Shown here: positions 3,892 through 61,591 of the stretch, in pieces
How the letters are laid out: the number at the start of each line of letters is the position of its first letter
Position numbering within the stretch: the stretch's first letter is position 1
Source: Moniliella sp. 'wahieum'
Lineage: Eukaryota
DNA: 64,000 nt
Assembly (NCBI GenBank): GCA_003971905.1
Contig: RSEE01000055.1
Span: forward strand, 124,001-188,000
Direction: 5' to 3'
Program-made: the position numbers and the translations under genes
The notes under the pieces: model-generated
Database searches by the model: none
The model's input: the letters and a program-made list of their open reading frames with translations, nothing else
Told to the model about the DNA's origin: nothing

Positions 3892-5330
3892 GAGGAGGAG
3901 GAGGAGGCGGCGGGCGGCGGAGGCGGCGGAGGCGGCGGAGAGGCGGCCAGACCGAAGCGAAGCACGGCGGGTGGCCGCAGCCAGGCGCAGTATGTATGCG
4001 CACGCGTGGCGCACAGCGCAGCTGCGCTGCCAGCCTGCGACGCCTGCAGCCTGCACGCCTGCAGCCTGCCGCGCCTAGCCTCGCGTGTGGCGACAGTGGC
4101 CGCGTGCCCCCCCACGACGCCTGCGCCTATCACGCGCCGCCAGTGCCCCCGTGCGCCTCCCAGCGCCCCACTGGCGCCACGCCCGTCCATGCCTCGGACC
4201 AGCGCGCCAGGGTGCGTGATATATGATACGCCGCAGTGGCTGGGCCGCCTCTCCTCTCGTCGGCCTCCCATGGCAGCCAACCCCCTCGCAGCGCCTCCGC
4301 CTCGCCGTTGCATCGCCCAGCCGTCGCTTGCGTCTGCGTAGCGCTTCCCAGCCCTCGCTCCTCCGCCCCCCACCAGCCCCTCCTTTCTACCGCGGCCACC
4401 GCCCGATCCCAGCCGAGCCTCAGCGCGGTGCAGACACCCCGCAACCCCCCACGCCCTCTCCTCTCCGCTCCCGTCGGCGGATGCGTCCGTGCGCTGGTCG
4501 CAACTCCAACATCCATCCATCTATCAGCTGGCTTGTGTGTCCTCGTACCCTATCGTATAGCATACCATCCCCCCATACCCCCCCCCCCATACCCCCCCCA
4601 TACCCCACAGATGCATGCAAGAGATATGGCCTCTTTCCTCCGTGGAGCTTCTGCTCCACATCCCAGCGGCCATTGCCGCCTGCGCCCCTGTGTGGGTCAA
4701 TGTACTCCATCGGTGTCGGTGGCGGTGTTTGGAATCCCGAACAGTGCTGAGTACAGGTTGTGGTTGGCCTGGGGAGGCTTGTTTTTCTGAATGGCCGCCA
4801 TACCAGCTCGGCCAATGGCTTCCCCGCATGGGCGCCCATCCCTGCTGGCGCCTTTCAAATCCCGTCCAATGGGGGCAGGCGGCCCCCAGGCACATCATCG
4901 ACATGCATCATCCATCGCCAGATCAGCAATCATTCATCACATTCATCACATGTCACAGACTATACATATCACCGCCATCTGTCCCGTCTGTCACGCCAGT
5001 CACACGTCACACGCTACCAACGTACCCCATATCGCCGTCAACGCGTCAACGCCACACCCCCGTCGTCTGGCTCTTGGCCTCGTGCGTCATCGCGGCTGGG
5101 AGGAATTACATCCATTACATACCCCCTGTTGCATGGTACATGGTACCCGTTAACCCCCCCCCCACATGGATCTTTCCTCCGCTTCATTCTGGACTGCCCC
5201 ATGGGGGTAAGCGCGCGAGTCATCAGTACTCACAACACACACTAATTAAATACTCTCACCCGTACTCAGTATTCACCGTACTCACGACTCAGTTGAGTAC
5301 TTACATGCGCGACTCACAAGGCTCAAGCGC

Positions 5331-5357
5331 TCAAGCTTCAAGCTTCAAGCTTCAAGC
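5331..5357. repeat. heptamer array (TCAAGCT)n within a wider TCA-N4 cluster (5221-5380)
   Basis: tcaagcttcaagcttcaagcttcaagc. Confidence 0.9.
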
Positions 5358-5910
5358 GTCACGGCGACATGTCACAATTGATGATTTTTGCACTTACGGA
5401 TTGACGTAACTGTGGAGAAGATAATGCCCGATATGCCCCTACTCTCCCATACTAGTGTGAAAGAGTGACTAGTGGCGAGAAAGATAGGGATTAACGCTTA
5501 GCCGCTTAACGATGATCGATTAAGCATCAATTCCAAAGAAAAGTAAGGTGGGGAGAAGTAAAACCCTAGGACAGGTGACCCAGTCTCACTAGTCACTTTC
5601 ATTGTGTTGGTCGCAGAAATGTCACAGGCTAGGACGCGCCTACAAGATGTCATGGGGCAGACCCAGAGCCGATTATCGTTCCAATCAGTTATTGGGCTCT
5701 GTTATAGATTTAGATGGAATGTTGGGTATGATGTGGGTGTAGTGGATCCCTCTGTGGCGATACCCACGATGCGTATAGACGAGCACTCAACGTTCAACCA
5801 AGTCCATCATAAGGGCGGGGGTACCACATATATGTCGCGGACCACCGTTGGCCAGAAGGAAACCCAGCCTATATGGACACAGGCCGAGCGGCCCAATCGA
5901 CCAGAGTGAC

Positions 5911-6250
5911 TGTTACGCGGTGCGCCGGTTATCTCCGGACGCTGAGCCCCGCACGTCGTAGCCATCCCATCCAAACACGCGTCAGTCCCGTTAGACTAGC
6001 GAGAGAGAACCAGAAAAGGAGCCTTATCGAAAGCACCCTTAAACTACCCGGGTGGGTCCCACCCCGGGACGCCTCCCATGACAGTGACCGGCAGGTATCA
6101 CGCGTGCATACTTGTGGCGCAACGAAAGCAGCTGTGGCATCCCGACCATATCCTGCATTCACCGGCCACAACCGCGAGGCTCAACGCCGCATAACAGGCG
6201 AGACTACGGTTTCCCTTGGGGTTGGAGGCAGTTGAGAAGTGGACGAAGGC
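5911..6250 (+). mobile_element. probable LTR remnant, related to the copy at 58126-58646
   Basis: Starts TGTTAC. 5911-6013 aligns without gaps to the reverse complement of 58544-58646 at 89/103 identities by hand count. Right end uncertain. Confidence 0.55.
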
Positions 6251-6286
6251 ACGTGGGGGGAAGAAGCGGACGAAAATGCCCAAGTA

Positions 6287-11310: not shown

Positions 11311-11331
11311 TGACTAGTGACTAGTGACTAG
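11311..11331. repeat. heptamer array (TGACTAG)3
   Basis: tgactagtgactagtgactag. Confidence 0.9.
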
Positions 11332-11834
11332 GACTCAGCACTGGTCCGTGCGCTAAGTACTACACCTCGCCTCGCATGGAGCAACAGGGTTATACCGGCT
11401 ACTCCACACAGAGGCGTATGCGATGGACAAATTTGTCCCTATTCTTCTCACGGGCAAGCCGGCGTACATCGAAGGCGCCGCCATGCAAAGATACGAATGG
11501 AAAGAGGAGGTCTGTTTTGAGGCCAAGCTCATGGTCGAGGTCGAGGCTGTAATAACGACACCGGCTATCAGTAGTAAAGGCGGAGACAACAGCTTTTCCA
11601 AGTTACAAGCTCAATGTCGCCCATACCGGCGTCTGGTACTCTTAACTGTGGATATTTTGTCACTTTTCATTTAAAACGACGAATCATCTTGTCTCTTTCC
11701 TCTTCGCGAGGGCAATGAGCACACACGAATGAGGAATGTTCAAGTGAACTGGGGAATGTCGCAAAGCTGTACTGGTACGAAATCCCCCATTTGGTCCATT
11801 CGAGAGACGAACCAAAGTGATATAAAACTGAGTC

Positions 11835-17006: not shown

Positions 17007-17577
17007 AAGCCAACGCACAATGGCTGTTCCTTTGGCAGCAAAACATTGGTGTAGGCTGTCGTACGTGGCATATTTTCCTCGGTACAGATGACACAAGACA
17101 TTGGCAAGGGCGAGGGCCAAAGGAGTACGGGCAATCCATGTAGTGCGAACACACACGCTGTAACGTCCACTATCTCAGCTCGACCTTTTCCTTGTTCCTG
17201 CGCGTATTGCATCGCCAGTGCATTCGTTGTGAGGGCATGCTCAGGTGTATTTGCAAACCGACACAGCGATATGAGATTCTGTTTGTGCGTGCTCTACGAG
17301 GAATGGAGGAGGCCGGAGGCGAAGGTGAGGCCGAAGGACGTGATGGGCGTGAGGTGCAAAGAGCAAGACTGGGCGAGGGTCGAGGCCTCCTCCATCATGC
17401 ATCATGTCATCGATCATCGCATCCCAATGTCCAATCACATGTCACACCCACATCACCTGCTGTCGACTGGCGAGTGTCCGCAGCCGGTGCGCAGCTCAGG
17501 TAGGGACAGGATGGGACGCAGGTGTGATGTGGGTTGGATGGTCAGGGCACGCCCCACTCCACTGGCTCTGTCCCCCC

Positions 17578-18782: not shown

Positions 18783-19348
18783 TATCTTTGCCCGGCATCC
18801 TGGCCGCTTCACATCTGGCGTCCCCAAATCTACCCTCGCTCTGTTACTTTGGCTCGGCGACCCCCGCTCGACACTGGGCCGCTATTCAGTGCGAGTCCGA
18901 GGGAGGGGTCCCGCATACACCGGTTGTACCACGTTTACCCCTTTGTCTATCCTCTGTTACATGTTATCCTCTGTTACCTCTATTGTCTCATACCATTAAC
19001 TTCACACAGGCTGGGGTCGGGAAACATCTGATGCCGTTTTGTCGGTCTTAGTGCACCGCTCTTTCCTTTCCCCCCTGATTGCCGGTGAGGTATCGCCGCC
19101 TCCAACGTAGCCCGTCCGCGTTGCCTGGCGACCATGCTTACGCAGTGAGTGGGGCCGCAACAGGGAACATTGATGATACGCGAGAAGTTGAGGGTGCTAA
19201 GGCGTCCGTCAGCCCAAACCAAGCTGACCACCCCCTCGTGCTTGTTCACAAGAACCGAGACCCATGATAGATGAACAAGTGGAGCTGTACTGAGTTGCTT
19301 ACATTCTCTCCACATCTAGAAGCACAATGCAAGTTGCTTGGGACCTTC

Positions 19349-19391
19349 GTCCCAAGATTAAGTTCTGTCAATGATATGGTTGCAGTATAGC
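19349..19391 (+). repeat. dispersed repeat segment shared with 58975-59015 (probable TE remnant)
   Basis: gtcccaagattaagttctgtcaatgatatggttgcagtatagc vs gtcccagccttaagctctgtcaatgatatgtatgcaatagc. Confidence 0.6.
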
Positions 19392-19691: not shown

Positions 19692-19722
19692 GATGGAATG
19701 GAATGGAATGAATTGGAATGAG
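19692..19722. repeat. (GGAAT)n microsatellite
   Basis: gatggaatggaatggaatgaattggaatgag. Confidence 0.7.
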
Positions 19723-23785: not shown

Positions 23786-24663
23786 CCAGCCGCCGCCAGC
23801 AGCAGCACGCTCAGCCGCAGCACGCCACAGCGCCCCACTCCCCAGGATACGCAACCCTAGCGACCCTTCCCACAACTGCCCTCATGCCTCATGCCCCATC
23901 CTGCATCCCGCCCCTAACCGATGCTAAATGTGAAGGACCGGTGACTAGTGACTAGTGACGCTAGTGACGAACTAGTGACGCGGGACACTTACTACCCACT
24001 GGTCACGTGCAGATAGCATGGTTCCTGTAGGTTCTTTTTCATCTTATCAGCAGAGCCTCGTGCCTAGTGCCCCCCCATACACGACAGCCCTACCACATCC
24101 AGCAGCCACATGCCACAGCCCCTCTCCGTTCACCATCCCATCTCTGCATCAACCCAACGCTCAACCTCAAATACGCTCAACCCGTGATCGATAAGCAAAA
24201 CCCAACACCACATATATGCCCCCGCCCAACATAATAGAGAGAGCAGCTGCCTCGCCGGCATTGGCTTCATCCAGTGCGGTTGCGACGCGCAGGGATGACT
24301 AGGGTATTCCGCTCAATCTAAATCCTATCCACAGTGGCGAGACACATCTTAACCAGCTTGTCAAGCTTCTCACGGTCTATTGAAACACCCCATCCGCAAA
24401 CCTCACACACCATCGCATCGAGCGCCCGTAGCATCCATTGGAATGAAGGTAGTGTGCATATTGCATGAAGCGGACAAAAAACGGAACTGTTCATCCATGT
24501 TCTGAAGATAATAGAGAAAGACTGAAAAACAGAATGAGATCGAATAGGTGCAACCTGAAAACGGATACAAGGGAACACTTTTTTCATGAAAGGCTTGATG
24601 CGATCAACAAGTTGGGTGACCAAGCGCCAAACCGAGAAAAAAAGAAGAGGACTGAGGACTGAT

Positions 24664-26864: not shown

Positions 26865-28191
26865 GGGTACTGTGGCTGTTGGTTAGGCGAGTGCGGATGG
26901 GGTGGTGGTGGCAGTCCAGAAATGTAAAACGGTGTCGTTCTTGAGAGAGGAGAATCGAAAAGAATATAGCCACGCAGGGAAAAAAACGGCCGCGTAGAAA
27001 GAGCACCGTCTTTTAAACGCGTGACGCGTGACGTTGACGGACCCGCGCGTGTAAATCCAGTGGCGTCATCGTGCCGAAAAGTTCGATCACAGTGACGCCG
27101 ACAGTTTCGCACAGGGGGGCTGTCACATGTCCCATGCAATGCGTCACAATGTGACACCCCACCCACGCGCAGCAGGCCGGCGGAATGGCACACGAGGCGC
27201 CTTGGCAGTCGAAACTGGGCTCGAGCATTGCAACGCTTGCGGCAGTGTGACCCACCCCCCATCCGATCTAGGATCTGAATCTAACATCGTGATGACTGGC
27301 ATGGAACATGGTCACTGAATCGAGAGGACATGGCTGTTGGGCGTTGGGCCGGCCCACCTCCTACACGCTGCATCAGAGCAGCAAGTACCTGTTGGCCTGC
27401 GTGCTCCCGGCCAGCTGACGGACTGAATCTGGCCGGCGGCTCGGGGCCTGCCGGGGCCAGAACGCCCCGCCGGGGCGGTTCTGGCCTGTAACATGTTATG
27501 CAAGTTACGGCCACAGGAAACATACCGATGTAAACGTGGACGTTGAACGTACTACGTACGTTGAACGCTAACGGTACTGGACCCTGTGGGATAGGTTGTC
27601 GACTATCCACCATCCATTTTGTAATTGGCCAGTATCACGGTCCTCTTAGCTAATCAGGGGAATCTTCTCACCGCTCTCCCCGCCGATCCTGTTCTCCCTC
27701 CTCCTACCAGTGCATCTTTGGCTTCCCTTGGTACTTGGTCTCACCCGTATCGCCCGATTCTTACAGCCAGAGTAGAAGAGAGAACCTCTCTCTCTGGTTT
27801 CAACATATCAGAGTAGACGCCGGTCAGATCTCAGGCTGTTTTCGGTAAAACCACGGGAAGGGATGTGGAACTCAATATCAATGCTGTTCCTTCCACTCTT
27901 TTCACACTTTACTGCCAGCATCCTATTGGCTGGGGGACCACGGCCATTTCTTGACCGTCCGTAGTGATTAAACCAGTTCTAACTAGCTCTAACTCCTACT
28001 GGTCACTAGCCGTTTTAACTACCGGTTACCCACAGCCTCGATGCTCGCGCTCGCACACAACAGCGGTCGATGACGTCAGTGACCAGTGATTATCAATTAA
28101 ACCTAAGCCTAAGCCTTAGGAGCTAGCTTAGGCGCTTAGGCCCCTTCGGCCTTAAACTTTTAAGTGATCCATTACTAGCTTTACTGATTAA

Positions 28192-28280
28192 TGACGTATG
28201 ATGCATGATGCATGATGCATGATGAAGATGGATGCCGGTGACCGGTGACCGGTGACCGGTGATGCATGATGCATGATGCC
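28192..28280. repeat. phased heptamer arrays (TGATGCA)n and (TGACCGG)n
   Basis: TGATGCA at 28199/28206/28213; TGACCGG at 28239/28246/28253, continuing in phase as TGATGCA at 28260/28267. Confidence 0.95.
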
Positions 28281-28596
28281 TGCCGCCGAGCAAAATAAAC
28301 GCCTTCGAAAAAGTGAGCAACTGCTGTCACAGATTGTCGCCTACTGTTGCCCGCCCGGGACAAGGCGGATCCATAGAGCAACTGGGAAACCCGGTAACGA
28401 ATAGTACCCAACATGCAACAGCCAGTTACCGGTTGCCGGCTACCGGTCACCGTACCAGCAACCCCAGGAACCGCCAAGAGTCAAATAATCGTCGGCGCGA
28501 CCGCCACATGAAGGCTGCTTGTGGTGACCGGTGTGGCCTGTGGTGAGTACTCAGGCTCAGTTAACTGAGTGCGGGCAAGCTCTGTCTGGGGATGGT

Positions 28597-28627
28597 TCAA
28601 CGTTCAACGTTCAACGTTCATTAATGA
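28597..28627. repeat. heptamer array (TCAACGT)3-TCATTAA-TGA
   Basis: tcaacgttcaacgttcaacgttcattaatga. Confidence 0.9.
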
Positions 28628-29413
28628 TTCCACCCTCCCCCACCGACCATGGGGAAAGGGGCTCGACCGGCGACCAGAGCGCCCTGTGCGCGCAGCGTCA
28701 GGCGCGTCAGATCTCAGACCGTCAGACCGCGCCACGCGTCAGGAACCACTCTGAGAATGGCGAGAAGGCGCTAAAATTAATATAAGGACTCACCGGTACT
28801 CCCCGAGCATCCCGCTGCTGCCTTCCCTGATAATTGCATCCCCACCATCTCTCCCCTTTTTGTCATGCTCGCCTCCCACAGGTTTGCTAAGGCCATATAT
28901 CGGCAGGCCTGGGGCCCAAGGGCCTAAGACTTAAGGCAAATGTAAGCCACGGGGTAAGGCACCAAAAAAGGAAGGCAAATGTCAAAAAGAGCCCGAGAGG
29001 AACTGTGCCCAAAACGTAAAGTCGAAAAAGGGAATAAACTTCGATACTACACAATGGGGGAATGTATGGGACCGCATGGTTCTCGGATTTTGTTGGAGGC
29101 CGGATTTCTCGTTTGTCAGTGGCAAAAAATTGCCTGTATGTTTGTGTGGCCGAGACAGGCACACGCCAATAACGTCTTCAATACCGCAGCCTCCACGAGC
29201 TCTTTGGAAGCAGGACTGAGCGCGCTGAAGCCTGCTGGAGTTATTATCTGAAGTTTGAAGAGCTTGTGAAGCTTGAAGGTAGGATAGTACAGCCATAACC
29301 CAAGTAGAAACTAGTACGTGGAGCTAGGTGAATATTGAATAAGTTTAGAGGTTCTGGCACGTCTGCGTCATCATATGCACATGCATCATGCGCCATGCGC
29401 CATGCACCATCGA

Positions 29414-29990
29414 TCATCAATCATTAATCATCGATCATCGATCATCAAATCAGTTGACTAGGAACTGCGCTGTGCCAGTTTCTAGTTACTTCTCGATTAC
29501 TAGAAGGGTCTCTCGTGTGACATGCGCCACGTGACGCGTGACGTATGAGCATACGATGTGGTTGAGATCATCGATCATCGATCATCGATCAGAAGACTTG
29601 CAGGCTCCTGCAGCACTTCCGGTCCGGCGTTGCTCGCTCCGCGGCCGGCGGTGTTTCATACGGAGCGCGGCTGCGGCAGTGGCTATCGCACCGAGTTTTA
29701 CATTTCCCGCCGAAGTGGTCACCGGTCACTGGTCACCGGTCATCGAGGTCATCGGTCATTTGTCCTCTCTGTTGCGCCATACGTGATGCGTGACGTTGTG
29801 TGACTTGCATGTGCAACAACTGTGTGTTTGTTTTAATGCTCGCTCGTTTTGGGGAAGTTATTCAAGCTTCAAGCTTCAAGCTAATGTCACGCGTCACGCG
29901 TCAGCGTCACGAGTCAAGCTGGTCAACCTTCAAATCTTCAAGCTACAAGTGAAGCTTCGTGCACTTCATGCATCATGCATCATGCATCAC
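29414..29990. repeat. cluster of heptamer arrays with TCGA, TTAA, CCGG, AGCT, CGCG and TGCA cores
   Basis: Arrays at 29414-29448, 29568-29591, 29719-29746, 29862-29882, 29887-29903 and 29966-29989. Confidence 0.9.
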
Positions 29991-30399
29991 TCATCATATG
30001 CGCGACTAGCGCGCTGATGCGCTGATGATTGGTTAGCGTCGCACCCCGTTCCCCTCCTTCTCTCATGGTGCGTTCAAGGTCGGACTACACCAACTGACAA
30101 GAAGCTATCTATAACTGTTCCTCCTCGCACAGTAGTGCAATCGTCATCCTTAGCTTGGTAGCGTAGATACTTGTCAATTAACGGACAACCGCGGTTCTGC
30201 ATTCTGGGCTCTCAGATCTCATTATGGTGTGACCGATTCATGGCGCTCACCCATTGATAGCCCAGTGTAGTGCTTCGCCTCGCCCTAGCCCCCATTCTTT
30301 CAGGAGGGAGTAGTGATTAGTGATTTGAGTGGGTCATGTAGCTCATCGAGCGCATTTCGATCCTGTGCCACCTCTCGACCGTTGCATTTTTGCAAAACA

Positions 30400-41963: not shown

Positions 41964-42617
41964 GGGCGCGGAGCGTATCCGAGAGGGCGGCCGAAGGGCA
42001 GGGTGGGCCGCAGGGCTCAAGAGTGGCTGGGGGAGCCTGCGGCCAGAAGGAGCTCGGGTCGGAGGCAATGCGGCCGCTCGCCATCGCCCATCCATCGTCG
42101 CCCCACCTGGCCTCATCGATCGGTGATCGATGATTAATGATTGGCAATCGATGGTCGTGTTGCGTCCATCTCTCGTTTCAACTTTCATTCGCTCGGGCCA
42201 TTCCGCCAGCCAGCCGCCTGCCCCTGCAATTCCGCCGGATGTTCGTGCCCCCCGCCCCCCTGGTTCCCCCTATGGGCACATGGCTGACACATACCAACGC
42301 ACTGTGCGCCGAAAGGCCATTGAGCTGTACCACATGACCGCCAACTTCCACCCCACCAAGCTCCCTGCTCGGATCACTATGACGATCAATTGTCTAACTC
42401 TCGCTCTATCAGCGTGTCGATGCATCCTTCGAATCCGGCGCATTAGGAGGAATAGTACTTCAAACAAGGGGCGTCGCATGTCATCCCTGGCTGATTCTTC
42501 TCCAAAAGAGTACAGATGTTGGGAAAAAGACAGCGCCACAGAAGGTCGAAAAAAGAAAGGGATATATATGGAAACGCCCGAGGGCTCATACAAAACACTG
42601 GGCCCCACCACACACTC

Positions 42618-43964: not shown

Positions 43965-44701
43965 TGTAGGTGTTGAGGGGTGTGTGTGGCTAGTACAGTA
44001 GGTGCGGTTGGTGGGGTGGTAGTAAAAACGAAGCTGGATATAGAGAAGGTAGACGTAGTTTGGCTTTTTATATAGACTCTCGCTCGCGCAAATTGGGCGG
44101 TGGCCCACGACCGTGCTCCCAGCACAGAGGCGTAGTGTGTCTCACGCCTGCCCGCACGAGGCGCGTGTGTGGCGCTGTGGTGGGCCAAGCACAGGGCCCC
44201 TTGGCGGGGAAATGGGTTTGGGTTGTCGCCGAAAAACACTGCCCCCCGGGCAGCCCCTTAAGTTAGGTGGCAGTCTGCGTCAGCAATCGCTCCTTCTTGC
44301 GCTCCAAATGAACGGCCGCTCGGGGGCCTTCAGCAAGCTTAGCTTAGCGCCAGTAAGCCCCATCAAGCTTGAAGCTTGAAGCAGGCATCGTGAATCATGC
44401 AATATGCGCCCTTTATTCATCGATCATGCCCATCATGTACCGGGCAGGGCACCTCTCTTCAAGCTTCACCGATAGAGCGCGGCCCTCGCGCGTCGGTATA
44501 TTACCGGCGGTGTGGCGGATTCCATGCGATCAACCACATACAGGAAGAGGTACTTCTCTGTTTTGTTTATTTTTCTCCTTCCACCGCCGTTCACAGTCTG
44601 TTCATCAACTCACTCTCCAATGATTCCCGCCCTGTACATGTAGCACATCCTTTTAACGTGAACCACATATATACCCCAACCGTCCCAAAACTGAAGAGAG
44701 A

Positions 44702-44883: not shown

Positions 44884-46701
44884 ACCGTCTCTTTTCCCCT
44901 CAACACCCTTCTTCTAGGAGGACTCAACTCTAGAAGAACCACCTTTCCGATCCGCTCGCTTGCCCTCCCTCGCCCATCGAGTCTCCCCGCTTTCTCGTCC
45001 GGCCCCTATTAGCGTGTAACCTCCTTGCAGACGCTGCCTGGCTCTTCTCGACGAACAACAAAGCACTACTTGCGACCCTCCTACGTTCACGCTAGTGTTC
45101 CTTTGGACTTTACATCTCATCTGAAACGTGTTCAGTAAGTCCTCCGTGATTCTTGTCTCCGATGGGTAGGGAAGGTCTCCGCCTGGGAAGTCAGCAACCC
45201 CGCTACAAATGTGGTCTCTTATCCAGTCCTCTATCAGGTATGTTTATCATCTTTTCTTGAAGCTTGAAGCACCGTACTACGGATATCACATCAGCTTCTC
45301 GTCCTCTAAGATCTAAGATATATATATTCACGCAGAACAAATCATCGTATCAGAGGTGGCATTGTATAGACGACGCTTCTACAGGCCGACCACACACACA
45401 GTATACTCACTGCCTTCCATCCTTCTCAGGAGGGCAGCAAATTTCTCAGTTTCCATCATGAAGGTGATTTGGCTTCTAGCTTCACCTCTCTGCAGCAACA
45501 GATCTATGATCGGATGGTAGTTCTCTGTTATCCACATATTGGGCGCGGCGGAAGCGCGAAAAAGGTAAGAACATGACTGTTGGTCTATATATTGAAGCGC
45601 TGGTGAGGAGCGCCGAACCACATAGTTAAGCGCCAAGCAAATAATAGGTCTTGACCCTTTTGTGTTGCGACGGTAACTGACTTTACCTTCACTGGCCGTG
45701 GAGCCCTTCCATCAGCCCCACGGCCTCACTAGCTTACTAGCCCACTAGCCCCCGTGGCTCCGCGGACTCCGAAGGTTGCTTGCTGGCACGGGCGTACCGG
45801 GCACCAGCGACGAAAGTAGTCTCCTGCTTTTGCTACCATCAACGCCCTTCGTCGAAGGGCCACAGAGGATATTTATCAGGCCGGATAAGCCCGAAGGCCT
45901 AAGGCCAAGGTTAGGCCCCCAAGATCTGACACCATCACAAGTTCGTACCCCCAACCTTGCAGGATAGGCTCATTCTATACCTTCTGAGATGGTCGATGAG
46001 CGCGGTGTGAGCGCGGCTAGAACGTCAAACGTTAAACGTCCGTCACATGTCACAAGAAAGGTGCTGTGGAGATGGGAGCCAACACAATGGAACAACCCTA
46101 CAAGGAGTACCAACAGTGCTGGTGACCGGTGACTTGGTCGATGATCGAGATGATCGGGGTGGCTGGCTGGAACGGTGGGGGACAGCCGGTAAGCGCTACG
46201 CCGGTAAGCGGTAAGCGGTAACCGGGAACCGGCGTGGTGCAACCCTAGGAGTAACGCAACGCGTAACGTAAGGCCGGTGGGGAGTGAATTTGAAATTGCA
46301 CGCACCCTCTCCATGGGTGCCCGGGCCCGTTTGAGGGGGCTGGCCCTGGGCCCTGGGCGGCGCGCATGTGCATGTGCCCTTGCAGCACGGCGTGTGGCAC
46401 CGCATGTGTGCTGTGGGCCTCGCGCCCACATCACGCGTCCGTGCCAAACGCCCACCGCTGAGCCTCAGCCCCGCCGCTGGAAGCGCGCATCACCGATCGC
46501 TGATCCGCAGCAGCCGAACACGGCCGCCGCATTGTTGCATCCTCATCGAATATCGATCCCTCATCGATCGTCCGCGTCCTCGCAACCTCCACCGCCGTCG
46601 TCACTGCGTCCACGTCCCCCTCTCCTCCACCGCCAGCCCGCGATGGGTGTGCAGTGGCACTAAAAACCCCACCCAACCGACCGCCCCGCCCCCCCTCGCA
46701 C

Positions 46702-50944: not shown

Positions 50945-53154
50945 TGGGTTTCCTATACATATATATACCTTTCTCTCCAATGCTTCCTTCTGCCAGCATC
51001 TTTCTTTTATTGCGCATCTCTATACTATCTCAATTATTATCGTCATTCTGCTCATCGACATATGTGATGATGCATTGCCACATGACAGTGCCACACCTGT
51101 GCCTTGTGTTATACTTAGTAGCTCCTACCTGTGCACGTAGCTATAGATCGTCGATCAAGCCTTTTGTATCGACGTATCCTCAAACCTCGTTGGGGTTCGC
51201 CCATCATGGATGGACAACTCATTTTACCCCGTGTGCATACGCCTATGTATGCACAGCTCTGCTTTCGAAGGGGGAATGCGTTGAGCGCTCAAGAGACAGA
51301 GAGAGGAAACGACGGTATACAACACATCTTGGCCTCTGCACTCATACACCAATGCAAGGATAGTATGAGGCCTGCACGATCCGATCCTCGAGTGTGTATG
51401 CGCTCCATACTATGCGGGATGCCACCATGTTCACAAAATGAGCCCGGTTGTGGAGGAGAAAAGAGGAAACGTGGTGTGTCCTCCGGCAACAGGCGTCGTA
51501 TGTGCACGGATTATATCCCATGATGTGGGTAACGAAGGAGCATTTGGTACCATTGAGGGATGGAGATGGATCCCACATCTTGAGAGACCCCACCAGAGGC
51601 CAGGTTTGTGTATTACTGGGGAAGGTGGTGCATAAGGATATTACGGCGACGGCTTTTTGGGACCCCTCGGGAGAGAAGGAGCTGCATGCATCTCGACAGA
51701 GAGCAGGTCGGTTGCGCCATGATTACGATATAGCAGTGAGGCACTCTCAAGGCACCCTTTCCTCTGATGGCTATGACAACACACCGATAGTATTATGATA
51801 CAAAAGATTTCCAAATACAAGACGAGTTTGCGCGCCCCAGAAGGAGAACGAGAGTCCTCCTCCTCTCCTCTGATGTTTTATATATACTCTCTCTAATTAG
51901 TGATCCTGGTTCCCCAGCCTTATAAGGTAACGTTAGGCAGTGGTGAAGCTTAGAGGAAAACAGGAGCTGGGTTGAACGTCATCGACAAAAACTTCGAGCT
52001 AATATATTCAACGTCAACGTTGCTTCCAACATTCCCGCGCACAAGAGATGTATGCAAGAAGTATGTATTACCCGAAATCATAGCCTACTCAGCTGCGTTA
52101 AAACCTTGATTATTCTTCCGATCCTCCGTCCTTCCGCGCCAAGCGCCCAAGCCGGCTTCGAGCTTCATCGATCTTTTTGCCATATGGTGATGTGATGCAT
52201 CATTATGGGATGGGGATGACCGAGAAGTGAGCGCTCCGCGCTCCAATCGCTGGTTAATCATTGTTGTGACACGCACCCGTGACCGCCTGGCCGTACCTTG
52301 CCCAATCGCAAAAGGCATTCGCATTTCGAGCGCAGCAAGCTTCAAAAAGAGTAAAAACCAACGGATCCCATTCAATGCATATCAACGTCATCAACATACC
52401 CAGGTACATGCATCGTGCATTGCATCATGCATTGTGCGAGCTCCCGGTTCGTTCAGGCACGCGAAGGCATACGTCCACAGGCCCAACCACTAACAGGTGC
52501 CATCAGGTGCCACACGTCCCTTGTGGATTGGATGATTATTTTCGCGATGCATGATAACACTCTTTCCGTCCGGCAAGAACCCTATATGTGTCTCTGTTTC
52601 CGTAAAGGAATACACAGTCTCAGATGTCGTCATGTCATACTGAAGAGTGACATTCGGCTGCTGTACAACAGTCTTCGGATTTATAGTGCCTTTTGCGTCC
52701 GCCGATCGAGCAAACATACACATAGTGCCGGCATAGTATACCCGTGAAACGGGAAACGCTCTCCCGGCGTTTTGTGGCTTGTGGGGGGAAAAGAGGAAGC
52801 AACTGAGCGCTTATTCTTACTCGGCGAGTATAGAAGCGTCCTCAAAATAGGCGCGACCGCGATCAGGGAGATATTTTGCCCATCGGATCTCAGATCTCTC
52901 AGATCTCAGATCTAGATCACGGCAAGGCCTCTGGCAAGACCAAAGGGTTCAACTATAATTTAACTATTAGTCGCGCTTCCTTTTCTCTAATGTAATGTCT
53001 CGTTCACGGCCGCAGTGGGGATAATCGATGGATGCTTTGTGTCGAAAAAGTATAGAATTAAGTGTGTGGATCTAGTGGAACCTATCTATAGATCCACTTC
53101 AATATGGATAATATTGTTACTCTAAATTGAACCTCACAAGCACCAAGAGCTCTT

Positions 53155-53535
53155 ACAGATCTCAGATCTCATCGATCATCGGATCATCATGTATCAGATC
53201 ATCAATTCTCATATCTCAACGTTCAAACCGTTCAACGTTCAACGTTCATTGAGAATAAGCCTCTCAGGCCCTCATTAGGCCCTCAGGCATCGACTTCAAG
53301 CTTCAAGCTTCATTGAGTACTGAAGGCCTCAAGCTTCAAGGGCCTCAAGCTTCAAGCTTCAAGATCCTCCACTTCAAGCATGATGCATGATATGCATATG
53401 AGACGTTTTCGTAATCGCGACCCTCCCTAGGCATCTCTTCACAAGCTACACTAGCCACTTACTGCTTTTAACATACTTGCGCGAAAACTCCGTTGTAACG
53501 CGTAACGCGTAACGTCTATAACGCATGAAGCTTGA
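53155..53535. repeat. dense mosaic of heptamer arrays (GATC, TCGA, ACGT, GGCC, AGCT, TGCA, CGCG cores)
   Basis: cagatctcagatctcatcgatca; tcaacgttcaacgttca; tcaagcttcaagcttca (several); tgatgcatga; taacgcgtaacgcgtaacg. Confidence 0.9.
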
Positions 53536-54062
53536 AGCATGTTAAACGTACGTTAAAAACGCACGTGTGATGATGCAGGAGTAGTAACTAGTTATGTAAA
53601 GATGTGTGTGTTAGCTTAAGTCCGTGGGGAATGGCGCAACAGATGTAGCCAGGCGGCAGCAACCGCTAAGCGCTGAAAGCGCTAATAACCGCCCGGAGAA
53701 ACCGTCGTCATGCTGGAGATTATACATGGATTAATCGATCATCGATAATCGATAATCACGACAACGCATCCGCGGCCTCTCCATGTCTCCCTCTCGAACA
53801 AAATGATGTTGAGACGACCTCCCCCCGTAGCCGCGTTACCGCGTAACCCCATAACTACACAGTAACTAGTAATGTTTGGCACTTGGCCATTGTCAGAGAA
53901 GAAAATGGGCCAACAAGGGTAGGCAGAAGAGAAGCAACATATATGTGTGCTGGAAGAGATTATACTTGTCTTCGAAAACCAATAACTGAGACGTATGTGG
54001 ATTGTGTGTGTGCAAGCAGTACAGCGTGCAGCCAGTGTCATGTGTACGGGGCGGTTATGAGG

Positions 54063-55323
54063 TCAATGCATAGAGCATAGAGCCCCCGCCGGAACGCACA
54101 TGCCGTGTATCTTGTGGGTAGCTGCCCGCGCATATGAATAACTTTTACGGTTGCTGTTGATTGTTGGCATCGCTTCGAGGGTTGTTTGGAGACAGCACTG
54201 CATCGTGCTGATGCTGGAAGGAAGACCAAAAGGAAGGTGGTGGATGAGGAACAACGATGGCTGAGAGGCCATCCGCCTGTCTGGGGCGGTTTCCCCCGCC
54301 GCGGCAGTTACTACTGGGAGGACCGGGGCCGGGGGCGGGGGCGGAGGATGAGATGTGAAGTGTGCCTCCGCGTAGGATGTCGATGAAGCTTCTGGCGCTT
54401 CGGTCGTGTGCGGGCCAGTGGTGAAAGTGGGCGAATGGCTATTGGGCCAGTGATTACTCAACGATGGCCCTCCAACTTGGGATACCGAAGGTCCGAAGGG
54501 GAACGGCTTTGGTTTCACATCCTCCGGTCATGGGTTAGTCCAAAAGACAGTTGTTGGTATCCAGTGCCATCGGCCGGAACAAACGCAAGACGACCAGAAT
54601 CACTGGCATAGGTTGGAGGGTCTCGACGTAGCTCCATGTACCCATTCGATGTCCCATTCCCGCATGCCCAGCAGATTGATGCGCAGTCGGGTCATAGTTA
54701 GATTGAGGGGAAATGGATGGGGCTGGAAATGGTCTACCCCCGGAGGCATGTCTGGGGGTCTAAGCGACACTCCGTTTGGGTGCTGCACAGGTGTTTGGTT
54801 CACAGAAGGAGGAAACGAACCGATGCCGTGGCGAAAGATGCGCGGTTCCGCCCCAGGTCCGCTTACTCCGGGTAAGGGAGCATGCAGCTCAAAAACGGTC
54901 CGTCTCTTGGCTTCTGCTTCCGGCTGGACCATCCAGAACATGAGGCCGAACTTCGGCCAGCTGAAACGAAACCGCCGTCGTGCTTGCGGGGTTCGCGTCA
55001 GGCGACGAAACCAGAAGGTTCACAGGTAGAGGATTGGGGCGCTGCTCATAACCTTGGCTTGTTGCAAGATGAGGATTGTGCTGATGGTGCATGGCCTGCA
55101 ACATCCCTCGCAACCGCGTGTTTTCTTGGCGCAATTCTCTCACTGTATCTGTAAAGTTTGGGGGGGAGGGGGGCGGAGTTAGCATAACGTTTTGCAAGCC
55201 TGAAGAGGGATGCTCACTTTCGAGATCAGCAATGTACTTCCTGCGGCGCTCACGGAACGCACGCTGCACCTCGAGGGCACGAGTGGGAGCTGCATCGCTT
55301 CGAGGTCGGCGGCCACGAGCCAT
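54063..55323 (-). CDS. bZIP transcription factor (3' end uncertain)
   Basis: MARGRRPRSDAAPTRALEVQRAFRERRRKYIADLE, then a probable GTGAGC..CTAAC..CAG intron, then TVRELRQENTRLRGML (basic region plus leucine zipper). Confidence 0.8.
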
Positions 55324-58125
55324 TGGATTGCCCAATGTCCAGAACCTTCTGGGGCGGCGGAGTTGGTAGAAGATGTGAGAGGTGAGTCCAAGGGACTGTT
55401 GCGGGCGGAGTGGTGGCGACAGGAGTCAAGAGCCGTAACCACAAAACTGGTGCGGACTTTGGCCACAGGATGGGGTCGGCCCTGTCGATAGACGATATAA
55501 TACGACACATCGCGCCTCATCGCGGGGCGTTGGTAACGGCACCTTATACACACACACACAAGAGGGAGCTGCCTATGCGACATCCCTTCCCTCCAGGATC
55601 CACCGCAGAGCGGCAGCTGGAAGCGTGCGCCACGTCGCAATTGCCAATTCATCCCATTGCGACCTTTCGGATCACTTCACCTTGACCCATTTGACACAGC
55701 AGGCGGGCCCGAGTCCCTACGGAGTCCCTTCGTTGGGTTCACGCGACCCTATTCGTTGAACACACTGAACATGTGGCATGAATATCAAGGAGCGCTCAGG
55801 CTGAGCAGCCACCGCAGCCTCAGCGCCTCAGCCGCTAGCGGAGCCACAAGACGCTGGACGCTGGACCACTGCTAGACCCCTATGCACCCCTCTTGTAATG
55901 GGTGATGTATGATGTGTGATTTGGCGACCGCTGGCGCTGAGGCGCTGAGCGCGCCTGACCGGTGACCTCGGAGAGCGGATCGGGAAGTTGGTATCGCCTC
56001 GTTAAAATGATGGGGTGTAAGGGTCGGGCGATACGAGTGTAGGCCGACTGCCGGTTGCGGGTTACCGGTTACCCGCATTACATGGTCGTACCGGTCATAC
56101 GAATACTGTCGCCGCTGATGGTCACCGGTCGTGCAGGTACGCGTTACGTGGCTACGGTCATATTGCGGCACGAATCTGTGGGGGAGAAGGGGCCCAAGGT
56201 ATACACCTGTGTTCTGGTCAGTTGGTTACAGCGCCGGTCTAGCCATGTCTAGCCAGATCTAGCCGCGCTCAGCTCAGTCTGAGCTCGCTGAGCGCTCGGG
56301 CTAAGCGGAGCTCAGTGGGTTGATCACGAGATCATCGACCATCTATCATGCATGCGGAGCAGGTCTTTAGTCAGATCGGTCAGAGGCTGTGGGTCTATAG
56401 CTAAAGGGAGAGGTCTCCGATTATTCGGTTAACACAGGTGCACTCATTGATCAGAACCGTAATCGATAATCCTACCGGTATCATATATCACCTATCATCG
56501 ATCAGCGCTCTCTCAGGCCTCAGGCTAGTGATGTGACCGGATCCGATGCCAAGCGAGAGACAGCAATCAACAACTGGGGCCAATAAACGATAGGGATTGA
56601 TTGCTGGTGAGCGCTAGTAGAGAGTAGCGGAGAGGGAGGAGGAGGGAGTGGAAGAGAGAAGACTAAGAGCTACGACTACTGAGGCTTCTAGAAGGAGGCA
56701 TGTCGGACAGCCACGCTTCCGCCCGAGCGGAACTAGCGGAGCTAGTGCTGGATGGAAGTGGCTGGGAGCGCCAGAGTCCGGCTATGCCTTTGGCACACCG
56801 CACTAGTGTCCCAACAGTAAGCCACCTCATCGATCATCCAGGCTCAGGCGGAACACTCGACGGAACAAGATCGAGTGGGGGAAATTGCTCTCGTGCGATC
56901 AGGGGAGTGGCAGAACGAAATTGATCCCACGGGCGTCATGACCTATTTATCGAGAGACTCCCTGCTTTTTCCACCTGTACTTAAGTGCGTGGCATCCCCT
57001 TGGCGAGGCCACTTACAAGTCGTCGCTGCATTAGTTGCAATGATGCATCAGTCTCTTGATATAATGATGAACGTATTAAGGTGAGTATTTTATGGATGAA
57101 CAATATATGTGCTCTCGATTATATCTGTGGATGGCCTCTGAGATCTGACGACGCTGATGCTCACTTTTATATATGGTCTGTGCTGACCCCTTCCTCTTCC
57201 CCAAAACGCATCCGCGCGACAAGAATTGCCCCCACGCTAAAGCCGAAGTCGATTGGCCTAAATGAGGTCACCAAGTTTTTCCGGCACCTTTGCGACCGCT
57301 GTCGCCCCGTTTCACCACTGCTTGCTTTGTCCTTATTTTCCGTTGCGCCTGCGGCAAAACGAACCCTCTTTTGACATGTCTTTTCCTTTCTACACCCCTA
57401 TTGTGCCCGTTTTCCCTTTTAGATATACTCTGTACCCCTGGTTATGGTGGGGATCCTTTCCCCAACACCTCCCATTCTGGCCCCTTCTCTCGCCTTTCCT
57501 GCCCGACTCCTCTGCCCGCTTCCAGCCATTGACTCAGTACAGAGGCAACTTCGTCTACCAGCTTTCCATTAGCCCACCAGCCGCTTCGAGTCCCCATACC
57601 AACTTATCGCTTGGGTTCCTTTCCAGACGCAGCGTCAACAGCCGCCCCTGTTTAGTCCCAACTCTGGCAGTGTGTTTCTTCTCCATATTGCCTCTACCCG
57701 TTCCCAACAAGCCCTGGAGACTTCAGCAATGCGTACGCCGCCTTTCCACACGTGAAGCTGTCTCCGCTCCACCCCCAAAGGCCCCTTGTCATGGGGGGGG
57801 TCCCGAGGTGCCCCCCCCCTGTAGTTTAGGGGTGTAAACCCTTGGACAGATCAATCGGTGGCTCGTCCGTTAGGTCCTGCTCCAGATCCTGGTTGAACCG
57901 AGCGGGTGTAGAGGCTAGGGAGAGACCCTCTAGTTTGGGTGGCTGCCTGCGTGCAAAGGCCGCAGTCCAGACCCTCCGAGGTAGGAGCCGTGTACGTAGG
58001 TCGATAGACCAGCTGAAGGGGTCCAGGAGCTCCGGAATTACTCTGTTCCTCGCCGCGTTACCACACTCGGTACGCTGTAGCCGGCGGGAACAGACAGAGT
58101 CCTAAAGAAGAGCAAGCGCTACTGA

Positions 58126-58646
58126 TGTGAGTAATCGCGGCTTGCAGTGCACTCGACGTAAGTCGTAAATTCGTAAGCGTAAGGGTGGTAGAAGGTGGAC
58201 GGGCGAGAGAGGAAGTGGTAGTCGGGGAGACCAACGGTAATAGACAGGATGGTCGACAAGGACCACAGCTAGCAAGCCTTAGACATGGCTGCTTATATAC
58301 AGCAGAGGGAACCAGACCTCAAGTGCCTCATGACAGGTATAGACAGAATGCGGGGCACTTCCCAGAAAGGTAAAGAAGACTAATGCACAGCCCTTGCTTC
58401 CCAAGGCGCTGACGCTGCGCAGTCGGGCGCAACAGGAAGGGTTCTGACAAGACTGGCCGCAATAGGCACAAAGCATCGTACCGATAAGACCATGCGGCCA
58501 TGGCGGGCCGCGGAGGATATCCGCAGCAAGGATAAGGTGTCGACTGGCTCTCTCTCGCTAGTCTAACCGAACTGACGCATGTTGGGCTGAGATGTCTACG
58601 ACATGCGGGGCTCAGCGTCCGGAGATAGCCGGAGCGCCCCGTAACC
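58126..58646 (-). mobile_element. probable LTR (about 520 nt) of an LTR retrotransposon remnant
   Basis: On the minus strand it is preceded by purine tract gaggtagggacgagaagggg, starts (G)GTTAC, contains TATATAAG (around 58295) and ends ..TCACA. The first 103 nt are shared with 5911-6013. Confidence 0.55.
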
Positions 58647-58974
58647 CCCTTCTCGTCCCTACCTCCGCTCGGATTCACCAACTAGCTCTTCAAGCCAGAA
58701 ACCACCGTGAGTTGTCCTTCCGTGTCTCCTAAGGGTTTTTGTACCCCACAAACCTGGGTGAGGCCCCTGACAGGGCCCGCCCGTGACTGTTAGCTTTTGT
58801 GGGCAGTGCCGCAAGGTTCTGGAGGCTTGAAGGGAGACCATCACCCTGAAAACAGTAGTGCCATTCTAAACGAGGAGAGTCGCTCTGTGTGGGGGAAAGA
58901 ATGTCTTTTCCCCGAGAAAAGGTATCATATATCACGGGCAAAATTATTTAGAACCGCAAAACGTATATATCCCT

Positions 58975-59170
58975 GTCCCAGCCTTAAGCTCTGTCAATGA
59001 TATGTATGCAATAGCGAGTATATTATACAAGGATTAAGCTAAAGAGACTGTATATTATACAAGGGATTCAACTAAGCCCCGCAAGATGAACGGTTCGGCT
59101 TAGACGTAGCGTTTCTCCTATCCCAGCCTTAAGCTCTATCAATGAGATAGGGATTAAGCTAAAGAGACTG
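58975..59170. repeat. AT-rich segment with internal direct duplications
   Basis: tcccagccttaagctct at 58976 and 59121; ggattaagctaaagagactg at 59031 and 59151; gtatattatacaagg at 59018 and 59050. Confidence 0.85.
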
Positions 59171-59229
59171 GATGATCGATGATTCCTCACGGGAATGAGC
59201 ACGTTCTATGCGATACCGTCGGATATATA

Positions 59230-59533: not shown

Positions 59534-59563
59534 AACTATGCTCCCCTATGCATGATGCATGAT

Positions 59564-59659
59564 GGTCGATTAGCTCAGTTGGTCAGAGCGTGGTACTAAT
59601 ATGTCCTGCCTGGAGTGTTGGTAATGCCAAGGTCATGAGTTCAAGCCTCATATTGACCA
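59564..59659 (+). tRNA. tRNA-Ile(AAT) with 22-nt intron (59602-59623)
   Basis: Acceptor GGTCGAT/ATTGACC, D arm GCTC..GAGC, anticodon arm TGGTA-CTAATA^A-TGCCA, T arm ATGAG-TTCAAGC-CTCAT, downstream T7 terminator. Confidence 0.93.
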
Positions 59660-60000
59660 CATATTTTTTTACTTGTTCTCTTCCTGATGGCTTTGGATCA
59701 AGCTCTTTCGAGCTTTTCCTGCCCTGTTCTGCTGAACAGGATTATTGGATTGCTGAGAAAAGGCCATGCAGACACGTATCAACCACCAAAAGATCAATGG
59801 ATTATCCAGACCATTGAGAGTGCTGGAGGTGGGCGAGCCGCCGTGGGCGGGTACATGTGTGCTAGAGGAACAGGAAGAGAAGAGAGGTTGCCCGCAGAGC
59901 AGGATCAAATGGGTGAAGGAAGCTGATGCAACAACGAGGACAGCTGCAAGAACAGCTGATATGGTTGCCAGCTGTAGTCGATGTGGTTCCCAATTTCGCA

Positions 60001-60549
60001 TTAGGCTGAATTCGCATTGTCCCCCGCCGCTTTACGGCGGCGATAGTCCTCTGCAGATCCAAAGATCCAAGGCTTGAGGATGGAGAACTGGCGACTGCCC
60101 GAATAGTCGGCAACGTGCTTTCCATCTTCGTAGAGGCGCATCGAGGGATAAGCAAGCACATTTTCTTGGTCGCAAATATCCCCCTGGACTGTACAATCAA
60201 CACGGGCCATGTAGAAGGCACTGGAGTCTTCCAAGTGGGCACTGATCTCGCTTAGGTCCTTCCACGTAGGCATGAAGTTTTTGCAGTCTGTAACCGAGCA
60301 GAGGTTAGCTCAGAAACTCGATCATCGTCAAGGACAACATACGAGGGCAATAGGGGCTGTAAAATTCCACAAACCACATCCCGTGAGCCGTCTTGGTGGC
60401 AAAATCGGCAGCTGTCAAGGAGCGCAGGCCTGATTCATCACTCTGAACGGGAGCGGGAGCGGGGCAGGGGCTGGCACTGGTGCGGGGGATGAAGAAACAA
60501 GAAGAGCACTGGCCAGAGCGGCAGCAGTGGCAAGGGCAGGGAAGCGCAT
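60001..60549 (-). CDS. secreted/ER single thioredoxin-domain (PDI-like) protein
   Basis: Signal-like MRFPALATAAALASALLV; WFVEFYSPYCP|HCKNFMPTW across a GTATGT..CTAAC..CAG intron (60288-60342) giving CPHC; ARVDC, AYPSMRLY, YSGSR. Confidence 0.85.
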
Positions 60550-61591
60550 GTTGGTGGCGGCAGGTGGTGTCCTATGGCCAACGTTACACGTTACGTGGTG
60601 CTGGCGAGTGGCAATGGTTGATCGCAACGGCAGTGCCGTTGCAGTGGCAGCGGGTGCTCGTTTGCATTCATTACTTGAATTAATTCGTTTGATCCATTCC
60701 ATTCGCCCACGTGATGTGTGACACTGACGCGTAACATGTGACAACTTGTGACCCACGTGACGCGCGTGACGCGTGATCGGCCGCCTCTCGCCGGCTACCC
60801 CGTTCACTATATAGTGACTTCGAACTAGCCGGGTCGCTGGACGTCCTTGGACTCCTCCAGGTCCTCACATGTCACAGCGTCTCATGAACGCTTCGCTCAG
60901 ACACTCAGATCTCAGAACCTGGGCTTCAATCTTCCAGCTTCAATCTTATTGAGCTTTGTGCTTCTTCATCTTCTCACAAGTAATAACATGTAACAGGAGA
61001 TGGAGATGGGGGAAAGGATGAGGATCATATCCATCGAGTGGAAAGAGAGCGAGATATATATGCCTCGAGTCACATGGAGGGAAAGAGGGAGCACAATCCA
61101 AAGGGGGAAAACAGGGTCTAGAACAAATCAAGGGGCCAGACAACTTGGTCACAAATAAACGTGATCAAGTGAATCTGTGAGAGATCCTGAGATCTGATCC
61201 CGACAAGTAACGATTAAAAAGAAGAGAGAGGAGATGATGCGGGCACACATGATGCAAATCATAAGAGAGAGAATCGGGCAGAACGGTGACGAGAAGATGC
61301 GATGAGATGTGTGTTAATCGCATTGATCACCTAGCGAATGTCACATGGTCCCGAGGTGCCTCAGGCCTCAGGCGAGGTCTCAGGCTGAAGAGGGCCCAAG
61401 AAGTTGAGAGCCTCAAGCTCAAGCTCAACCCCTCAACGTCCTCAACCCTCAACGTTGAAGTTCAACTTGAACCCCAATCAGTTTTTCAACTATTACTCCA
61501 ACTAATCATACAGTAGCGCAGTTTCCAGATACTAGAGAATCACCGAGCATGTCGAGCCTCCAACTGTAAAAAAGATCGCCACAATCAAAAA

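Follow-up and report, generated by a model that had tools for sequence, protein, structure and literature searches.

Heptameric T-N-A arrays with palindromic cores in the intergenic DNA of a smut relative, and a tentative model of their origin by insertion of fixed geometry

The window analysed here, a stretch of 64,000 base pairs (bp) of contig RSEE01000055.1 (positions 124,001 to 188,000), carries genes whose intergenic DNA is interspersed with tandem heptamers, in which a T-N-A trinucleotide (N, any base) alternates with a palindromic tetramer. The DNA is nuclear, as its genes (tubulin, CCT4, RPS1 and others) indicate; it is rich in guanine and cytosine (GC, about 57%), and its open reading frames (ORFs) are split. 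Pfam domains identify an ArfGAP, a histone deacetylase, a Rad50/SMC-type N-terminus, a short-chain dehydrogenase, an F-box/LRR protein, an MFS protein and Gpi1, together with a CCT chaperonin, ribosomal protein S3Ae, COG6, alpha-tubulin, TrkH, a thioredoxin, Gpi16 and a RasGEF. One exon of the gene for the CCT delta subunit shares 89% identity with Tilletiaria anomala, its best named match, and 79-85% with the other named Ustilaginomycotina; judged by this exon, the host is a smut-related member of the Ustilaginomycotina and a relative of Tilletiaria. Genes were mapped by combining Pfam matches with a codon-usage score for each ORF, a codon-usage track being too weak. The resulting map, on which all statements about gene spans and intergenic DNA below are based, is rough, with weak calls for three genes (G9, G17 and G18), and assigns 38.7 kilobases (kb) to gene spans and 25.3 kb, or 39.6% of the window, to intergenic DNA.

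That the heptamers are real and far above chance is confirmed. A preliminary description had listed period-7 arrays of several palindromic cores across the window, and Tandem Repeats Finder together with direct reading of the sequence recovered every one of them in place; the names of the units had to be corrected at three, namely 29966 (TCATGCA) and 29719 (TCACCGG), where each unit is the reverse complement of the name first given, and 44363 (mostly TGAAGCT). The window holds 39 exact period-7 runs of 15 bp or longer, where 20 dinucleotide shuffles give 1.2; the corresponding figures for period 8 are 4 and 0.25. Expected values here and below come from shuffles of the whole window, coding and non-coding DNA mixed, and are therefore approximate, beside effects that are 40- to 400-fold. 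Within the window, TSA-N4-TSA (S, C or G) with the same trinucleotide on both sides occurs 141 times against 32.8 in shuffles, and this count at lag 7 compares with 23-69 at the other lags from 3 to 21. When the core is palindromic the excess is far greater (89 against 1.85 in 100 shuffles, with a maximum of 7), and 14 of the 16 palindromic tetramers are used, AATT and GCGC never. The earlier claims that palindromic cores are favoured and that many of them share one period and one spacer are borne out, and the conclusion then drawn, that slippage of a single unit cannot explain the arrays, was correct.

When all 64 possible spacers are compared in the form XYZ-pal4-XYZ (pal4, a palindromic tetramer), only TCA (56 against 1.2), TGA (33 against 1.0), TAA (8 against 0.12) and TTA (3 against 0.10) rise above the rest, with enrichments of 30- to 70-fold; the four spacers ranked next, ATC, ATG, CAT and GAT, reflect other ways of parsing these arrays. 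The spacer can thus be written T-N-A, its middle base being free. If the same middle base is required on both sides, there are 100 perfect 10-mers of the form TNA-pal4-TNA against 2.3 in shuffles, and these fall into 74 loci. Of 53 exact heptamer arrays with at least two copies, 34 are reverse-complement symmetric against an expected 0.3, with a TnA centre in 32 of the 34, and the other 19 are non-symmetric against about 3 expected. Symmetric units of other periods are not enriched in the window (16 against 13.9 for period 5, 2 against 0.7 for period 6, 0 against 0.03 for period 8 and 1 against 0 for period 9), nor are heptamers with an A-S-T centre (108 against 109). The inverted arrangement of the TGA-N4-TCA type is likewise not enriched overall (18 against 33.5); with a palindromic core, this form with its complementary middle base occurs 7 times against 2.3 and is barely in excess, compared with 89 for the direct arrangement with the same middle base. 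The principal loci and tracts are as follows.

5331..5361: TCAAGCT, 4.4 copies, flanked by the degenerate TCA units TCAAGCG and TCACGGC
11311..11335: TGACTAG, 3.7 copies, roughly 190 bp away from where a minus-strand gene is inferred to start
17393..17444: three single loci, TCATGCATCA, TCATCGATCA and TCACATGTCAca
23941..23980: TGACTAG, 2.7 copies, then GTGAC units at spacings of 9 and 11
27017..27033: TGACGCG, 2.4 copies
28185..28282: composite tract in TGA phase, with cores TTAA, CGTA, TGCA (three), a gap, CCGG (four) and TGCA (two), the CCGG and TGCA blocks in one TGA phase
28595..28627: TCAACGT, 3.7 copies, then TCA.TTAA.TGA
29380..29446: CATGCGC, 2.7 copies, then TCA.TCAA TCA.TTAA TCA.TCGA TCA.TCGA TCA, a two-block chain whose flanks, aa and tc, are those that the model described below predicts
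29530..29548: TGA.CGCG TGA.CGTA TGA
29566..29591: TCATCGA, 3.7 copies
29717..29759: TCA.CCGG TCA.CTGG TCA.CCGG TCA, then degenerate GGTCATC units
29861..29916: TCAAGCT, 3.1 copies, then TCACGCG, 2.6 copies, and degenerate TCA units
29966..29997: TCATGCA, 4.6 copies, reverse-complementary to the arrays at 28198 and 28260
42118..42155: TGA.TCGA TGA.TTAA TGA, a composite of 38 nucleotides (nt), 89% complementary to 29406-29443
44363..44382: TCA.AGCT TGA.AGCT TGA, with mixed middle bases
45256..45319: TGAAGCT, 2.1 copies, and TAAGATC, 2.1 copies
45894..46133: two-copy loci of TAAGGCC, TAAACGT, TCACATG and TGACCGG
52886..52918: TCAGATC, 4.6 copies, with one 2-bp interruption
53156..53250: 95-bp tract with TCA about every 7 bp, with cores GATC and TCGA, degenerate units, then ACGT (three)
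53294..53363: three TCAAGCT arrays with unique sequence between them
53378..53538: TGATGCA, two copies; TAACGCG, 2.9 copies; TGAAGCT, 1.9 copies
53732..53757: TAA.TCGA TCA.TCGA TAA.TCGA TAA, with mixed middle bases
56060..56525: TTACCGG, two copies; TCA.TATA TCA.CCTA TCA.TCGA TCA; TCAGGCC, two copies
59171..59183: single locus TGATCGATGAt
59548..59564: TGATGCA, 2.4 copies, abutting the 5' end of the transfer RNA (tRNA) gene at 59564-59660
60725..60776: tract in TGA/TAA phase (CGCG, CATG, CGCG), upstream of the minus-strand thioredoxin gene
60904..60916: single 12-mer TCAGATCTCAga
61358..61373: TCAGGCC, 2.3 copies

The elementary unit behind these loci is a 12-mer of the form TNAcd d'c' TNAcd, or the mirror image of this on the opposite strand: a 5-base direct repeat, middle base included, set around the reverse complement of the repeat's last two bases. 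The period of seven is the sum of three and four, since the 4-bp palindrome cdd'c' sits between two identical TNAs. A scan of geometries on both strands, with direct repeats (X) of 3-6 bases and inverted fillers (P) of 0-5, found strong enrichment only for X=5 and P=2 (120 against 0.3), two-copy 12-mer seeds standing some 400 times above chance; with other fillers, repeats of five gave 8 against 5.2 (P=0), 6 against 1.2 (P=1) and 2 against 0.1 (P=3). Core half-lengths of 1 and 3 are not enriched in the window. The filler is always 2 nt and always taken from the end of the repeat distal to TNA, and a filler from the TNA end was never seen. The two TNA copies are direct, not inverted: the rule that the second and ninth bases be identical is the only one broken in 19 windows, against 100 perfect 10-mers.

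Chains of one, two, three, four and five TNA-pal4-TNA links number 68, 12, 6, 1 and 1, so the shortest form is the commonest, and isolated TNA-pal4-TNA loci (44) exceed isolated pal4-TNA-pal4 loci (9). In the 57 single-link loci the ends behave as if in two states, the periodic match halting either at TNA or exactly 2 nt past it, in the middle of the next core: extensions of 0, 1, 2 and at least 3 bases occur 25, 7, 19 and 6 times on the left and 18, 5, 24 and 10 times on the right, with extensions of one base depleted, and chance would give an extension of at least two in about 3.6 of the 57 loci per side. Cross-tabulated as (left, right), the extensions are (0,2) in 14 loci, (2,0) in 10, (0,0) in 5, (2,2) in 4 and (1,1) in none; a tandem duplication of an existing 7-mer would predict left and right extensions summing to 4. 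In the four clean composite chains (28239, 29421, 53162 and 42124), each consisting of two blocks in one TNA phase, the predicted flanking dinucleotides are present at seven of the eight ends, as should be the case if a single ab-TNA-cd site gave rise to both blocks.

Other constructions of the unit were tried and set aside. Target-site duplication of a pseudo-palindromic heptamer predicts 14-mers, and the modal periodic span is 12, while duplication of a 4-bp palindromic target with a 3-nt T-S-A remnant predicts the pal4-TNA-pal4 form, which in isolation is the rarer of the two. From fold-back synthesis or head-to-head fusion of ends one would expect a complementary middle base, the form that is rare, and hairpin opening with P nucleotides is at odds with the lack of any spread in filler length and of any filler on the TNA side. 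A single nnTSAnn heptamer or A-N4-T hexamer is not the unit either, as the excess of each (231 against 132 and 324 against 176) is about what the composite loci contain.

With respect to genes, 68 of the 74 loci lie outside gene spans, that is, in 39.6% of the window (binomial p = 4e-21), which agrees with the earlier statement that the arrays are intergenic. Fourteen of the 20 intergenic intervals contain loci, at densities of 0.9-6.6 per kb, and 3.4% of intergenic bases lie within them; some loci are upstream of genes, some downstream, and some in a 3.5-kb stretch without a recognised gene. Thirteen loci fall within that length of DNA at 51060-54549, between the 3' ends of two convergent genes, one of which is weakly called. 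No locus occurs in six short intergenic intervals, among them that upstream of the RPS1 gene (39383-39707). Orientation shows no clustering along the window (31 switches against 30 expected; TCA:TGA = 40:24, p = 0.06). A bias towards TCA on the sense strand of the nearest gene was considered and rejected, the counts, sense first, being 36:28 overall, 26:14 upstream and 7:12 downstream.

Two stretches, 27000-31444 and 51060-54549, each of 3.5-4.4 kb and of lower GC content (47-55%), hold the most loci (18 and 13). As gene-free intervals they are unusually long for so compact a genome; no ORF of at least 60 amino acids in them has a Pfam match, and the idea that they hold transposon remnants was dropped, Pfam revealing none either in the 116 ORFs there or in 150 longer ORFs across the window.

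How the loci age bears on what they are. There are 121 windows in which one and only one of the seven constraints is broken, where 54 would be expected; the resulting excess, 67, is spread across six of the seven and compares with an excess of 98 for perfect windows. By our reasoning, elements born perfect and decaying by point mutation should give two excesses of about equal size, while purifying selection should leave only a small one-mismatch class, and the decay of the loci looks neutral. Because of this near-neutral decay, the lack of consensus among cores and the lack of enrichment of the inverted arrangement, we read the loci as products of mutation.

Our preferred reading, held tentatively, is that the loci arise by a lineage-specific insertion of fixed geometry anchored at TNA and are afterwards subject to slippage and neutral decay, and that they are neither binding sites nor ordinary slippage microsatellites. 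Each event would add 7 bp at a pre-existing TNAcd and would thereby supply another TNA together with 5 bp of microhomology at a distance of 7 bp, after which the locus could grow to (TNA+pal4)n by further events or by microhomology-mediated slippage. Since a TNA reads TN'A on the opposite strand, the event may also use the two bases on its other side, and chains would therefore have no more than two blocks, whose cores differ but share one TNA phase. Local clusters would be explained by the new TNA that each event adds. Finished loci would decay by ordinary point mutation, and selection against 7-bp frameshifts would presumably keep them out of coding DNA. The least certain element is the agent, which might be an enzyme specific for T-N-A that cuts or joins DNA in a fixed geometry; T-N-A (or TWA) is the target of PIF/Harbinger and IS5-type DDE transposases. 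The preliminary description had suggested that template switching makes the cores palindromic. In its simple fold-back version this fails, as it predicts the rare complementary middle base, while a template switch seeded at a pseudo-palindromic TNA stays an alternative as the agent.

Going further, one might suppose that a DNA-processing activity of this fungal lineage, so far undescribed, recognises T-N-A and writes a 7-bp quasi-palindromic insertion at a rate of the order of base substitution; we regard this as possible but doubtful. A domesticated or cryptic transposase-like nuclease could be the agent, or a specific template-switch pathway.

Several observations weigh against the insertion reading. 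Insertion at TNAcd is deduced from end products and not from an observed event, and we know of no nameable enzyme or repair pathway that yields a 5-bp direct repeat with a 2-nt, one-sided inverted filler; were hairpin opening with P nucleotides at work, fillers should vary in length and derive from either flank, and they do neither. Among 266 ORF translations searched with Pfam (150 longer ORFs from the whole window and 116 from the long gene-free stretches) there is no transposase, integrase or reverse-transcriptase domain, and the window holds neither a structure resembling a miniature inverted-repeat transposable element (MITE) nor an element with inverted termini. The match continues for at least 2 nt on both sides in 12 of the 57 single loci, against about 3.5 by chance, and reaches 2 nt on neither side in 10. 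The chains at 44363, 53732 and 60725 mix their middle bases. With 68 loci on 1342 intergenic TNA sites, the implied rate is, by rough inference, about 0.5 events per TNA site per unit of per-base substitution, which is very high. Finally, the map behind the word "intergenic" is approximate.

Of the alternatives, an unlikely one, yet the strongest, is that these are structure-driven microsatellites, quasi-palindromic heptamers that form hairpins or slipped structures and are therefore born and expanded faster through slippage. Each array is indeed self-reverse-complementary at six of seven positions, chain sizes drop off as they do in microsatellites, and as single-stranded DNA the composite stretches fold well, with -23.8 kcal/mol and z = -7.5 for 28185-28282 and z = -3.4 for 29855-29920. 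Yet the five single-core stretches fold like their shuffles or only slightly better (z = -0.6, +0.3, -0.4, -1.7 and -2.0), and the commonest state is an isolated 10- to 12-mer that is incapable of a hairpin. Self-complementary units of periods 5, 6, 8 and 9 should also have been favoured and are not, the TnA centre of 32 of the 34 symmetric arrays is not accounted for where any complementary pair would suit a hairpin, and chance proto-repeats are too few to supply the births (120 against 0.3). Somewhat less likely again is that the loci are cis-regulatory or chromatin elements under selection, bound either by a protein that reads T-N-A at 7-bp steps or A-N4-T, or by several homodimeric factors with one hexamer each. 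Their intergenic position, many within a few hundred bp of inferred gene starts, would suit such a role, as would the array that abuts a tRNA gene and the presence of hexamers known as sites in fungi, ACGCGT being the MluI cell-cycle box and the ACGT cores bZIP sites. Against it stand 14 cores without a consensus, one-mismatch derivatives at roughly the frequency expected from neutral decay, the absence of any bias in orientation with respect to the nearest gene, the 13 loci between convergent 3' ends (one gene call there being weak) and the six short empty intervals, including the one upstream of RPS1; the inverted half-sites that dimers need are not enriched. The factor proposed earlier, reading TGA-N4-TCA half-sites regardless of core, meets the same difficulties, with 18 inverted forms where 33.5 are expected, 7 with a palindromic core beside 89 direct ones, cores without a consensus and near-misses at about the neutral level, and is not supported.

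It is improbable that the loci are remnants of mobile elements, whether subterminal repeats or foldback terminal inverted repeats of MITE-like elements or excision footprints of the PIF/Harbinger type, in which a duplicated TNA target would enclose the terminal dinucleotides of the element, head to head. By analogy with the Tc1 footprint TA-CA-TG-TA, TNA repeats around a palindrome would be the form expected from a 3-bp target duplication with 2 nt left by each inverted terminus; moreover, same-core arrays lie in opposite orientation 170-1750 bp apart (for example 28236/28428, 53294/53515 and 28191/29966), and a 38-nt composite is common to two loci 12.7 kb apart. Fourteen fillers would, however, need 14 element families, the extra half-core past the second TNA is unexplained, the window has neither a transposase domain nor an inverted-terminus element, and the similarity of 29406-29443 to 42118-42155 stops at the array. 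An artefact of assembly or sequencing is the least credible explanation by far, given 74 loci with 14 cores, each inside unique sequence, with graded decay by point mutation and exclusion from coding DNA.

Some individual tracts deserve comment. The 98-nt foldable stretch at 28185-28282, with TGATGCA blocks on either side of a TGACCGG block, could extrude as a cruciform. The TCGA/TTAA composite at 29406-29443 recurs as its reverse complement at 42118-42155 with 89% identity, which reflects either the copying of a short tract or the parallel evolution of two original sites that were identical (AA-TCA-TC). At 18948-18980, a 17-bp tandem duplication, TATCCTCTGTTAC, produces one TTA-CATG-TTA locus by chance; what had been taken for a 7-bp direct repeat around TTACATGTTA at 18957 is in fact this duplication. 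Between convergent 3' ends at 19495-19870 there are non-palindromic heptamer arrays (GTTCAAG, 3.3 copies; AGGAACA, 2.9 copies; GAGGAAG), along with TCA repeated every 7 bp in a chain whose cores are not palindromes.

The remaining features of the window are of other kinds. A tRNA gene with an intron lies at 59564-59660 on the plus strand (ARAGORN, with an unclear anticodon; 52.5 bits in Rfam), and another at 61592-61696 on the minus strand reaches 52 bits in a permissive regional search only, being missed by the whole-window run at gathering score and by ARAGORN. A dispersed repeat of about 130 bp occurs at 5880-6020 (plus) and 58530-58675 (minus), inverted, 85% identical and 52 kb apart; at gathering score Rfam gives no match, and the candidates are a small non-coding RNA gene, a MITE and a promoter segment common to both sites. 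A motif of about 30-40 bp (containing CCTTAAGCTCTGTCAATGATAT) has three copies that are 78-91% identical (19346-19387, 58972-59013 and 59117-59148), two of them 145 bp apart with GGATTAAGCTAAAGAGACTG after each. There are also tandem repeats of 27 bp (4.8 copies, 97% matches) at 23663-23791, in the interval upstream of the F-box gene, and of 24 bp (5.1 copies) at 10292-10412, inside an inferred minus-strand gene. Finally, 3000-4600 is very GC-rich (about 72-78% by codon position); both strands carry long ORFs that overlap one another, with low-complexity translations in Pro, Ala, Gly and Arg, and no gene or strand could be assigned to the stretch.

Should the insertion reading be true, the loci would represent a clean and countable mutational signature of exact geometry, and a signature so precise usually points to one enzyme or pathway that can be found by genetics. 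A single process would then generate many different tandem repeats and restriction-site-like palindromes in promoters, providing raw material for the turnover of regulatory sites, and it would need to be modelled whenever fungal intergenic DNA is aligned or scanned for motifs. If an activity that writes 7-bp insertions does exist, it would be the dominant source of new intergenic sequence, continually supplying promoters with new 6-bp palindromes and short arrays. If, instead, the loci prove to be conserved, they would constitute a new kind of regulatory element, specific in shape and not in sequence.

A search of the full-text literature, with most subscription journals outside its scope, did not find the heptamer pattern described, and several known systems share parts of it. 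The AP-1/Gcn4 site of bZIP proteins, TGA(C/G)TCA, is likewise symmetric and 7 bp long, its central position being free to be C or G, but the centre here is T-S-A and not A-S-T, the arms have no fixed sequence and the repeats are direct. Excision of Tc1 leaves the footprint TA-CA-TG-TA, and P nucleotides arise at the hairpin ends of hAT and V(D)J intermediates. As in the footprints of cut-and-paste transposons generally, there is a pseudo-palindromic target with a free centre, a palindromic filler between its copies and a fixed increment in length; a PIF/Harbinger-type footprint shares in particular the direct duplication of a 3-bp T-N-A, all four TNAs being enriched here. Unlike a transposon footprint, the filler here varies by locus and matches the two adjacent bases, not an element end, and it is 2 nt from one side. 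The closest analogue is the GC clusters of yeast mitochondria, which are 30-40 bp long. PMC4478555 describes them as mobile palindromes with a duplicated AG target at their flanks, discusses footprints that carry the target twice, and cites Weiller et al. (1989), whose title names "single elements and tandem arrays". The resemblance lies in a palindromic unit flanked by a duplicated short target, while the clusters are mitochondrial and follow a family consensus (named GC42 in that paper), and the units here are 4 bp long, nuclear and of 14 sequences. The "palindromic microsatellites" of Fusarium mitochondria have the form (A)n-TATA-(T)n and are unrelated to the heptamer loci. The preliminary description had compared the heptamers with intergenic TCACGAA arrays attributed to Ustilago, which comes taxonomically close, the window being Ustilaginomycotina; a paper on tandem repeats in Daphnia makes no reference to U. 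maydis. Slippage microsatellites, for their part, are also exact head-to-tail repeats of non-coding DNA with copy numbers that fall roughly geometrically, but here the unit is fixed (only period 7, a T-N-A spacer and palindromic tetramers) and seeds are above chance. A 5-bp repeat at 7-bp spacing is the type of microhomology pair that serves as a substrate for tandem duplication, so the microhomology within the 12-mer offers a plausible route to the longer arrays.

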